DNA from: a virus
Taxonomy: Duplodnaviria > Heunggongvirae > Uroviricota > Caudoviricetes
Reading direction: 5' to 3' (one strand)
DNA length: 4,666 nt
Virus record (IMG/VR): IMGVR_UViG_2534682252_000033
Position 1 is the first letter of the stretch. Every line of letters begins with the position of its first letter. This document shows, piece after piece, positions 2,641 to 2,913 of the stretch. A program made the translations under genes and the position numbers. The notes under the pieces were generated by a model. The model made no database searches and was not told the DNA's origin. It worked only from the letters and a program-made list of their open reading frames with translations.

Positions 2641-2767
2641 TATCTTGACAACATCCGTCACTGTCTGTCAGAAAATGTACTGCCATATAGAAGCAACATG
2701 TGAAGTACATCTATCCTTTTGAGCCAGCACCTCTCCACCGAAAGTCAGTGCTGGCTGTTTTTTTCCT
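2641..2767 (+). repeat. Direct-repeat unit 1: TTGACA box, CTGTCTGT/GAAAAT motif, then plus-strand intrinsic terminator (stem 2722..2730 / 2748..2756, T-run 2758..2764)
   Basis: tatcTTGACA...CTGTCTGTcaGAAAAT...CCTTTTgAGCCAGCAC-(17-nt loop)-GTGCTGGCT-gTTTTTTT. Perfect 9-bp stem followed by 7 T on the plus strand. Same architecture as unit 2. Confidence 0.6.
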
Positions 2768-2808
2768 TAATAAAGCATCTGTAACTGAAACAATCCGCAT
2801 ATTGATAA

Positions 2809-2913
2809 TATATTGACAGGCATCATTGCTGTCTGTGAAAAATAAGTCTCTACAAACATATAAGGCCTTTTAGCCAGCGTCTTCTTTTTCAGGTCAGTCG
2901 CTGGCTTTTTTTA
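2809..2913 (+). repeat. Direct-repeat unit 2: TTGACA box, CTGTCTGT/AAAATA motif, then plus-strand intrinsic terminator (stem 2872..2879 / 2899..2906, T-run 2907..2912)
   Basis: tataTTGACA...CTGTCTGTgaAAAATA...CCTTTTAGCCAGCG-(19-nt loop)-CGCTGGCT-TTTTTT. Shares motif order and the AGCCAGC/GCTGGCT stem arms with unit 1. It abuts the stop codon (2914..2916) of the NanS-like gene. Confidence 0.6.

Follow-up and report, generated by a model that had tools for sequence, protein, structure and literature searches.

We analysed a 4,666-nucleotide stretch of viral DNA (IMG/VR record IMGVR_UViG_2534682252_000033; hereafter the window), which is the late region of a lambdoid (Stx1/434/933W-like) Escherichia coli prophage with its late genes on the minus strand. 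The 447-nt intergenic region between the sialate O-acetylesterase gene nanS-p and the pinholin gene carries two repeat units on the plus strand. We conclude that these units are quite probably a pair of paralogous genes in tandem, convergent with and antisense to the late transcript, whose small RNAs (sRNAs) bind Hfq and act by base-pairing. An earlier reading made from the letters alone (the sequence-only reading) had listed two tandem small antisense RNA genes first among its explanations, and this matches published data on essentially identical sequence. The locus itself is already in the literature, through PasA (2021), EcOnc51 and EcOnc52 (2014) and a distribution survey (2026). What we add is that the downstream unit, unit 2, looks like an autonomous tandem paralogue of the upstream one, a modest refinement.

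Unit 1 corresponds to pasA

By its sequence, unit 1 is pasA, a published Hfq-bound sRNA gene of pathogenic E. coli prophages. PasA (pathogenicity-associated sRNA A) was described from prophage PP2 of enteropathogenic E. coli (EPEC) E2348/69 (Pearl Mizrahi et al. 2021, PMC8550237), and Table S6 of that study places it on the minus strand of NC_011601 at 743499..743415 (85 nt), with a minor form of 236 nt reaching to 743264. The major form corresponds to 2680..2764 on the plus strand of the window, with 85 of 85 nucleotides identical to NC_011601 743499..743415 (minus), and the minor form to 2680..2915 (+), with 235 of 236 identical to 743499..743264. PasA was confirmed by Northern blot, with a probe that is the complement of window positions 2731-2755, and its stability is Hfq-dependent (PMC8550237): under activating conditions its level in the delta-hfq strain is down about 7-fold (log2 fold change -2.78). 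Northern, delta-hfq and RNA-seq data from EPEC E2348/69 (PMC8550237) together document an Hfq-stabilised RNA of about 85 nt from sequence identical to unit 1. The sequence-only reading had predicted a plus-strand RNA of 60-90 nt ending at 2764; published PasA is 85 nt long and its 3' end falls exactly there.

Ligation of interacting RNAs followed by sequencing (RIL-seq) recorded 41 partners of PasA and 4983 chimeric fragments in virulence-activating conditions (PMC8550237). The seed GCCAGCACCU, derived from the motif complementary to these RIL-seq targets (Pearl Mizrahi et al. 2021, Fig. S5; PMC8550237), lies at 2723..2732 (+), and unit 1 thus possesses the PasA 3' stem-loop and poly-U terminator with the seed in its 5' arm. 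Unit 1 also occupies the pasA slot of a lambdoid prophage, flanked by the esterase gene on one side and holin/lysozyme genes on the other and lying on the strand opposite to them, as judged from open reading frames (ORFs), Pfam and the E2348/69 annotation; esterase-holin synteny of pasA was stated by Zhu et al. (2026 preprint). PasA of E2348/69 and unit 1 share gene, slot, strand, terminator, seed and 236-nt form, and no difference was found in the RNA, whereas the prophage backbone of the window differs. Since the two PasA forms of Table S6 share their 5' end and differ at the 3' end, we read them as products of read-through, not of 5' processing.

Two diverged units share one motif order

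The sequence-only reading described two diverged direct-repeat units with a shared motif order, and we found every motif it listed where it had been placed. On the plus strand both units run colinearly through TTGACA, CTGTCTGT, an A-rich block, CCTTTT, an AGCCAGC hairpin and a T-run, at a spacing of 168 bp. The hexamer TTGACA, a 6/6 match to the -35 consensus in both units, lies at 2645..2650 (+) in unit 1, that is, at -35 to -30 from the PasA 5' end at 2680, and at 2813..2818 (+) in unit 2. Ten nucleotides beyond it in each unit follows CTGTCTGT (2661-2668 and 2829-2836), joined to the A-rich block, CAGAAAAT at 2669-2676 in unit 1 and GAAAAAT at 2837-2843 in unit 2. In unit 1 this box and block (2661..2676, +) would comprise the end of the promoter spacer, a TG at 2666-2667 and a weak -10 element, CAGAAA, at 2669-2674; by homology to unit 1, their counterpart in unit 2 (2829..2843, +) may likewise be read as a TG-extended weak -10. 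CCTTTT (CCUUUU in the RNA), the U-rich tract 5' of the PasA terminator, is at 2715..2720 (+) in unit 1 and at 2866-2871 in unit 2. The intrinsic terminators span 2722..2764 (+) in unit 1 (arms 2722-2730 and 2748-2756, T-run 2758-2764) and 2872..2912 (+) in unit 2 (arms 2872-2879 and 2899-2906, T-run 2906-2912). CCUUUU followed by a hairpin and a U-tail is the usual Hfq-binding module, of which the CCUUUU tract of PasA would be an internal part.

Gap-tolerant alignment of unit 1 (2630-2767) with unit 2 (2796-2915) gave a colinear alignment scoring 234, against 123 +/- 14 for dinucleotide shuffles (z about 8), and 0 of 1000 shuffles reached the score. A stringent local alignment of the two units recovered the terminator arm only; the homology becomes visible with gap-tolerant scoring. 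This homology over promoter, body and terminator argues for membership of unit 2 in the family of PasA and PasC, the latter an sRNA of EPEC E2348/69 to which we return below. A third, degenerate repeat in the 3' coding end of nanS-p (2914-3010) was considered and rejected, its alignment to the units being at chance level (z 0.9 and 0.2). That end includes the site contacted by PasA in RIL-seq as well as short look-alike words, and its plus strand does not fold (-3.9 kcal/mol, z +0.8).

The spacer between the units (2765..2808, +), with 2 of 44 columns variable, includes an A/T-rich stretch upstream of the unit-2 -35, and three independent rearrangement junctions fall within it at about 2793-2797. 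TTGATAATATATTGACA, upstream of unit 2, was compared by eye with the Fur-box consensus and discarded as a poor match.

Both hairpins are terminators of the plus strand

The segment 2715-2764, containing hairpin 1, folds at -16.3 kcal/mol (z -3.3), and the segment 2865-2912, containing hairpin 2, at -16.5 kcal/mol (z -5.0). On the plus strand seven U directly follow each hairpin, whereas on the minus strand both stems are followed by AAAAGG and no U-run. Both units accordingly qualify as intrinsic terminators on the plus strand and neither does on the minus strand, in agreement with the earlier claim that the hairpins terminate on the plus strand only. The curated record of phage 434 annotates both as plus-strand terminators, and the T-runs coincide with the RNA 3' ends reported by Pearl Mizrahi et al. 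(2021, PMC8550237). Comparison across hairpin types showed 3 of 9 stem pairs changed on both sides (C-G to U-A, A-U to G-C, and C-G to U-G or U-A). In this comparison 94% of stem cells were paired, as against 21-49% when the partner column was slid, and the covariation score was reached by 0 of 500 shuffles.

Ahead of the terminators, the starts of both RNAs, mapped for unit 1 and implied for unit 2, are in register with the -35 elements. The -10 hexamers, each with TG ahead, match the consensus at 3 of 6 positions (CAGAAA in unit 1, GAAAAA in unit 2). A sigma-70 scan found no canonical -10 partner for either TTGACA and called a promoter in neither unit, which bears out the earlier remark that the -10 elements are poor. 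Drawn from this register, the promoter assignments in both units are putative rather than demonstrated.

Hfq binds the unit-2 RNA in two pathotypes

The predicted RNA of unit 2, of the EcOnc51/52 type, would be about 65 nt long and span 2848..2912 (+), with its 3' end at the T-run. Position 2848 is the homologue of the PasA 5' end. In EPEC, the 236-nt PasA stops at the terminator of unit 2 (Pearl Mizrahi et al. 2021, PMC8550237). Table S6 of the same study also lists, within the PasA entry, 'pasA.E2348C_0688.IGR', the stretch from pasA to the esterase on the pasA strand. This element has a 7-U tract and 5 RIL-seq partners, and it takes the RNA2 (sRNA) position in 100% of its chimeras (PMC8550237). 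One listed fragment, with escD as partner, maps to window positions 2885-2912. The ratio of PasA to unit-2 fragments was 4983:119 (42:1) under activating and 116:54 (2:1) under non-activating conditions, a shift of about 20-fold, and a fixed fraction of read-through would not give such ratios.

In enterohaemorrhagic E. coli (EHEC) strain Sakai, cross-linking and analysis of cDNA (CRAC) with Hfq yielded peaks at 2237479-2237555 (+, prophage Sp12; EcOnc51) and 1181998-1182075 (-, Sp4; EcOnc52), with near-equal signal and a Rho-independent terminator marked for both (Tree et al. 2014, PMC4104026). The coordinates in Table S2 of that study refer to an older Sakai sequence and not to NC_002695.2, so we derived offsets from Northern-probe and gene landmarks: about 0 at 0.90 and 1.180 Mb, +142 at 1.267 Mb and about +140 at 2.234 Mb, from old to current. 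An uncorrected look-up of EcOnc features in NC_002695.2 lands on the wrong element. After correction, EcOnc52 (TCTCTACAAAC...GCTGGCTCTTTTTTTATTATGCTGCCG) covers unit 2, starting at the equivalent of 2847 and running to 10 nt beyond the T-run, and EcOnc51 is the identical unit 2 of Sp12; an initial assignment of EcOnc51 to unit 1 was dropped on these coordinates. The Sakai unit 2 differs from that of the window by a 2-nt deletion in the loop and a 2-nt (CT) insertion right before the T-run, and by nothing else. In Sp4 unit 1 is absent and the end of an IS629 insertion sequence (IS) abuts the unit-2 promoter; in Sp12 no separate CRAC cluster was called over unit 1.

As the EPEC RIL-seq fragments and the Sakai CRAC clusters both cover unit 2, its RNA is bound by Hfq in both pathotypes. 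The sequence-only reading had also predicted a plus-strand RNA ending at 2912, and the fragments at 2885-2912 together with the EcOnc51/52 clusters correspond to it.

Conservation of the pair and of unit 2 alone

We surveyed 75 evaluable IMG/VR loci anchored on the nanS 3' end. The tandem pair is present in 45 of them, so that the repeat architecture is conserved in relatives; one further locus has the pair with a mutated unit-2 hairpin. Single genes are found as well: a PasC-type gene in 10 of the 75, and a unit-1-type gene abutting the nanS stop in 2. Neither unit is found in 13, of which 11 have a different intergenic region of 161-162 nt and 2 an IS-interrupted unit. Across the tandem loci the PasA 5' body (2680-2714) is a divergence hot spot with 28.6% variable columns, compared with 2-8% in most flanking non-coding segments, 12% in the holin gene and 19% in the unit-2 terminator segment. 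This hot spot is the PasA/PasA-2 dimorphism described by Zhu et al. (2026).

The unit-2 promoter, by comparison, is variable at 1 of 40 columns across the tandem loci, with a perfect -35 at the same distance from CTGTCTGT. Four of the 75 nanS-anchored viral contigs carry unit 2 without unit 1. Three sorts of DNA precede it there, one an IS629 end and the other two unrelated sequences, and the junctions cluster within about 5 nt, near window position 2795, just upstream of the A/T-rich stretch. The unit-2 -35 is kept in these loci, behind IS629 or unrelated DNA, and on plasmids, where about 100 sites have unit 2 beside a decayed nanS remnant, as against 8 for unit 1. The plasmid copies are diverged (about 90% identity) and sit in IS-rich regions of plasmids, including ones of 82-128 kb, from EPEC and Shiga toxin-producing E. 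coli (STEC); two examples, both at 2970-3115 of our loci L086 and L087, are on plasmids of about 90-128 kb. The nanS remnant beside them measures 87-177 nt, and stem pairing is held by G-U wobble. IS629/IS3-family elements also occur repeatedly in or beside the unit-1 hairpin (at about 1131 in L005, and in L006/L007, L050 and L055), removing or splitting pasA and leaving unit 2 intact.

Among complete E. coli genomes, 692 of 5426 carry unit 1 and 677 of 5426 unit 2, at a median of 4 and 3 places per carrying genome, respectively. An E. albertii genome has the tandem pair at the same 168-bp spacing. A scan of 185,579 species-representative genomes for the promoter-box pattern returned E. albertii and 16 single matches in unrelated taxa; we take the latter to be chance, and that scan gave no evidence of the family outside Escherichia.

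A model of two sRNA genes and its alternatives

We propose that a sigma-70 promoter of unit 1, with a consensus -35, an 18-bp spacer and a TG-extended weak -10, would start an RNA at about 2680, and that the terminator at 2722-2764 would end it to give the 85-nt PasA. Hfq would bind and stabilise PasA through the CCUUUU/hairpin/U-tail module, and PasA would pair with target mRNAs via its seed GCCAGCACCU in the 5' arm of the terminator. Part of the transcripts would pass this terminator and yield the 236-nt minor form at the second one. Unit 2 would be a diverged copy with the same promoter layout, which probably fires alone at about 2848 to give an RNA of roughly 65 nt that ends at 2912, beside the nanS-p stop, that also binds Hfq and that has a related but different arm, AGCCAGCG. 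The size, ends, Hfq dependence and RIL-seq partners of PasA and the Hfq binding of the unit-2 RNA come from the literature on identical or near-identical sequence (PMC8550237, PMC4104026). We infer the promoter assignments, an independent start of unit 2 and a separate target range for it.

Several points weigh against this model. The PasA 5' end may be processed from a longer transcript (Zhu et al. 2026). The -10 hexamers are poor and were not called by the promoter scan. The compared loci are close relatives (about 2% nanS divergence), and conservation alone is weak evidence among them. For unit 2, the 5' end is a predicted one, and the published Northern probe, complementary to 2731-2755, cannot detect its RNA. 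The EPEC study treats the region as the 3' part of the minor read-through PasA (PMC8550237). Because Sp4 and Sp12 have identical unit-2 sequences with near-equal CRAC signal, the reads are probably multi-mapped, and expression of the Sp4 copy, which lacks unit 1, is therefore putative.

Some of these points would favour a single gene, pasA with two alternative terminators, in which unit 2 has decayed with a dead promoter and the RNA ending at 2912 is read-through or consists of fragments processed from the 236-nt form. The shared 5' end of the 85-nt and 236-nt forms in Table S6, where the downstream region is counted as PasA (PMC8550237), agrees with such a gene, as do the weak unit-2 -10 and the possibility that the CRAC reads of Sp4 are multi-mapped from Sp12. 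Yet the unit-2 promoter keeps a perfect -35 at the same distance from CTGTCTGT with one variable column in 40, and unit 2 is repeatedly retained where unit 1 is gone. The 20-fold change of its RIL-seq ratio to PasA between conditions also speaks against a single gene, and so does the CRAC evidence, in which a cluster edge coincides with the predicted start (EcOnc52 begins at the equivalent of 2847) and Sp12 has no separate unit-1 cluster. We therefore regard the single gene as unlikely, and unit 2 is, on balance, probably an independent gene.

A different question is whether both RNAs act mainly in cis, against the late transcript at its nanS-S junction, by way of RNase III cleavage or by interfering with transcription; this would damp leaky holin/nanS expression in lysogens or uncouple nanS from the lysis genes. 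The opposite orientation and full complementarity can be read from the sequence, the esterase-holin position is fixed in most loci, and RIL-seq links PasA with the adjacent esterase mRNA at its 3' end and also recovers a late-strand fragment over the PasA 5' end. However, 36 of the 41 PasA partners are coding-sequence or 5' untranslated-region elements, and the targets, contacted through a short seed, include core-genome mRNAs and are mostly encoded in trans. The esterase contact lies outside the antisense overlap, the duplex energy of PasA with the nanS 3' end is no better than that of shuffles, and the late strand has a terminator of its own at 2548..2522. The duplex of unit 2 with the nanS 3' end did stand out (1 of 300 shuffles), which we ascribe to pairing of the U-tail with an A-run. 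A main role in cis seems rather improbable to us, although a cis effect is compatible with the two-gene model and possible alongside trans-acting sRNAs. The sequence-only reading had raised two further possibilities, neither of which found support. Facing the late operon one behind the other, the two strong unidirectional terminators could be polar insulators that merely block plus-strand transcription into nanS and the late region, with the RNAs as by-products. But each terminator has its own consensus -35 ahead of it, so the transcription stopped there is generated by the unit itself, and the hairpins are the 3' ends of sRNAs that the units themselves start. Moreover, the products are abundant, Hfq-stabilised and partner-specific, and the 28.6% variable columns of the PasA 5' body are as expected for a functional RNA; we consider insulation very improbable. 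Scarcely credible, finally, is that the hairpins act on the minus strand as 3' stabilising structures or terminators of the nanS-p message. The stems fold equally well there (-20.8 and -15.5 kcal/mol), but both are followed by AAAAGG and no U-tract, the real minus-strand terminator (2548..2522) lies 370 nt farther on, and some nanS-p loci lack both units entirely.

With two tandem sRNA genes as the preferred model, the locus belongs to the prophage sRNAs that link the carriage of phages with the control of host and virulence genes in EPEC and EHEC, and PasA is among the most connected accessory sRNAs of the EPEC Hfq interactome. Literature term searches, of partial cover, found no paper stating that the downstream unit is a tandem paralogue that has diverged and has a promoter to itself. 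According to Zhu et al. (2026 preprint), pasA copies are not tandem duplicates; unit 2 would escape their BLAST search, which was set to a 28-nt word size and >75% query coverage. If unit 2 is a separate gene, this changes the annotation of RIL-seq and CRAC reads at the locus, the copy-number and variant counts of population surveys, and the design of pasA knock-outs, since deleting pasA alone leaves unit 2.

Genomic context and further features of the window

nanS-p (2914..4666, -), encoding a sialate O-acetylesterase with SASA and DUF6645 domains, is truncated at its 5' end by the window end and frameshifted. Its stop codon occupies 2914-2916, beside the end of the unit-2 T-run at 2912. Relative to an intact 1851-nt homologue (NZ_CP148314), two single-base deletions, around 3647 and 3827, split it into a SASA-domain ORF (3815-4633) and a DUF6645 ORF (2914-3678); the frameshifts mark either a pseudogene or homopolymer sequencing errors. 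On the other side of the sRNA units, an intrinsic terminator of the late strand (2522..2548, -; -20.9 kcal/mol, z -4.1) precedes the first lysis gene, S, which encodes a class II (P21-type) pinholin (2260..2466, -; Pfam PF04971, E = 1.3e-32); the phage 434 record also annotates this third hairpin, ahead of holin, as a late-strand terminator. The phage lysozyme gene follows (1572..1039, -), whose counterpart in the phage 434 record is labelled a signal-arrest-release (SAR) endolysin, and then, in the minus-strand late order, Rz. Three O157:H7 chromosomes match the intergenic region at 100% identity, and Stx1a phages, phage YYZ-2008 and phage 434 match it at 99.6-99.8%. The best match to the whole window (99.1%) is an STEC-like chromosome that carries the PasA-2 variant as its unit 1.

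A 687-nt insert at 1573-2259 parts the pinholin from the endolysin gene, which adjoin in phage 434. It holds an ORF (1690/1732-2004, +; 90-104 amino acids) antisense to the lysis cassette and without a Pfam match, annotated in the closest genome merely as a hypothetical protein. The best sigma-70-like match of the window, TGGACA-18-TATACT (10/12), is at 821-850 (+) and is followed, between endolysin and Rz, by a strong hairpin (917-949) that is bidirectional, each strand having a T-run. The region 821-959 (+) could encode another plus-strand small RNA of about 100 nt; its sole Rfam cover is a sub-threshold rimP-leader match at 884-959. At the sRNA locus itself, published RIL-seq data include a late-strand fragment over the PasA 5' end (2667-2685, -) chimeric with PasB, which suggests a further late-strand RNA or an sRNA-sRNA contact there.

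Comparison with known systems

The closest published relatives of unit 2 are EcOnc51 and EcOnc52 of Sakai Sp12 and Sp4 (Tree et al. 2014, PMC4104026), whose clusters cover it; unlike the Northern-validated PasA, they are candidate sRNAs. The EPEC paper cites them as 'homologues of PasA' and lists them as such in its Table S6, with unit 1 and unit 2 not separated (PMC8550237). PasC, from prophage PP5 of EPEC E2348/69, is a single 79-nt gene (NC_011601 1290909..1290832, minus) in the same slot and on the same strand as the window units. Its promoter and 5' half are those of unit 1, and its stem, T-run and flank (AGCCAGCG...CGCTGGCTTTTTTTATTATGCTGCC) those of unit 2; being single and having a different loop, it is unlike the window. 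In our collection, one locus (L167) has a tandem pair whose unit 2 bears the PasC-type loop, and another locus joins a PasA body to a PasC terminator. From these mosaics, PasC looks like a recombinant of units 1 and 2, or the tandem pair may have arisen from two PasC-like alleles. A common ancestor of PasA and PasC was inferred by Zhu et al. (2026), with no tandem copy described.

EcOnc32 of Sakai prophage Sp3, about 112 nt by Northern and among the strongest Sakai Hfq-CRAC peaks (Tree et al. 2014, PMC4104026), lies in the same slot by a nanS-like stop, on the antisense strand and with a TTGACA -35. It shares with the units the terminator 3' arm, T-run and flank (CGCTGGCTCTTTTTTATTATGCTGC), whereas its body is different and its stem longer (GCCAGCGCAGA / TCTGCGCTGGC); it lies outside the window. 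Its promoter spacer contains the Fur-box-like ATAATGATAAT, and in our locus L228 (Sakai Sp3, about 575-760, -) the stretch ATAATGATAATGTTTAT within this spacer matches, by eye, about 15 of 19 positions of the Fur-box consensus. AsxR and AgvB (Rfam RF02703/RF02702) are, like PasA, short Hfq-bound prophage RNAs of the late region, opposite to the late operon. Their conserved 3' and variable 5' parts show the same pattern as the PasA 5' variability, but their slot differs, downstream of a stx/moron gene. An Rfam scan of the whole window at E <= 1 found no match in 2467-2913, including to these two families; PasA and EcOnc51/52 are without a model in Rfam 15. HnrS (EcOnc10-12; 66 nt), a multicopy late-region sRNA downstream of Rz with a stretch complementary to the mazF 3' end, described in 2026, was considered for unit 2 and rejected, its best local alignment in the window being at chance level (10-30 nt).

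Pairs of neighbouring paralogous Hfq sRNA genes, in which each member has a promoter and a terminator to itself, are known as OmrA/OmrB in E. coli and PrrF1/PrrF2 in Pseudomonas aeruginosa, and in the latter read-through of the first terminator produces the longer RNA PrrH. The two units resemble these pairs as tandem paralogues, and the 236-nt PasA form is analogous to PrrH. There is no sequence relationship, however, and the units are phage-borne and antisense to a late operon, with the autonomy of unit 2 a predicted one. We lean towards a wider reading in which unit 2, having a promoter and targets of its own, would join PasA and PasC as the third and autonomous member of their family, forming with pasA a tandem pair like OmrA/B or PrrF1/F2 that has a PrrH-like read-through RNA of 236 nt. 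PasC would derive from recombination between the units, and the slot would be a cassette site at which different bodies (PasA, PasA-2, PasC, unit 2 and EcOnc32) are swapped onto a shared terminator at the nanS stop. If true, this contradicts the statement of the 2026 preprint that pasA copies are not tandem, and places the locus beside OmrA/B and PrrF1/F2 as a pair of paralogous sRNA genes.

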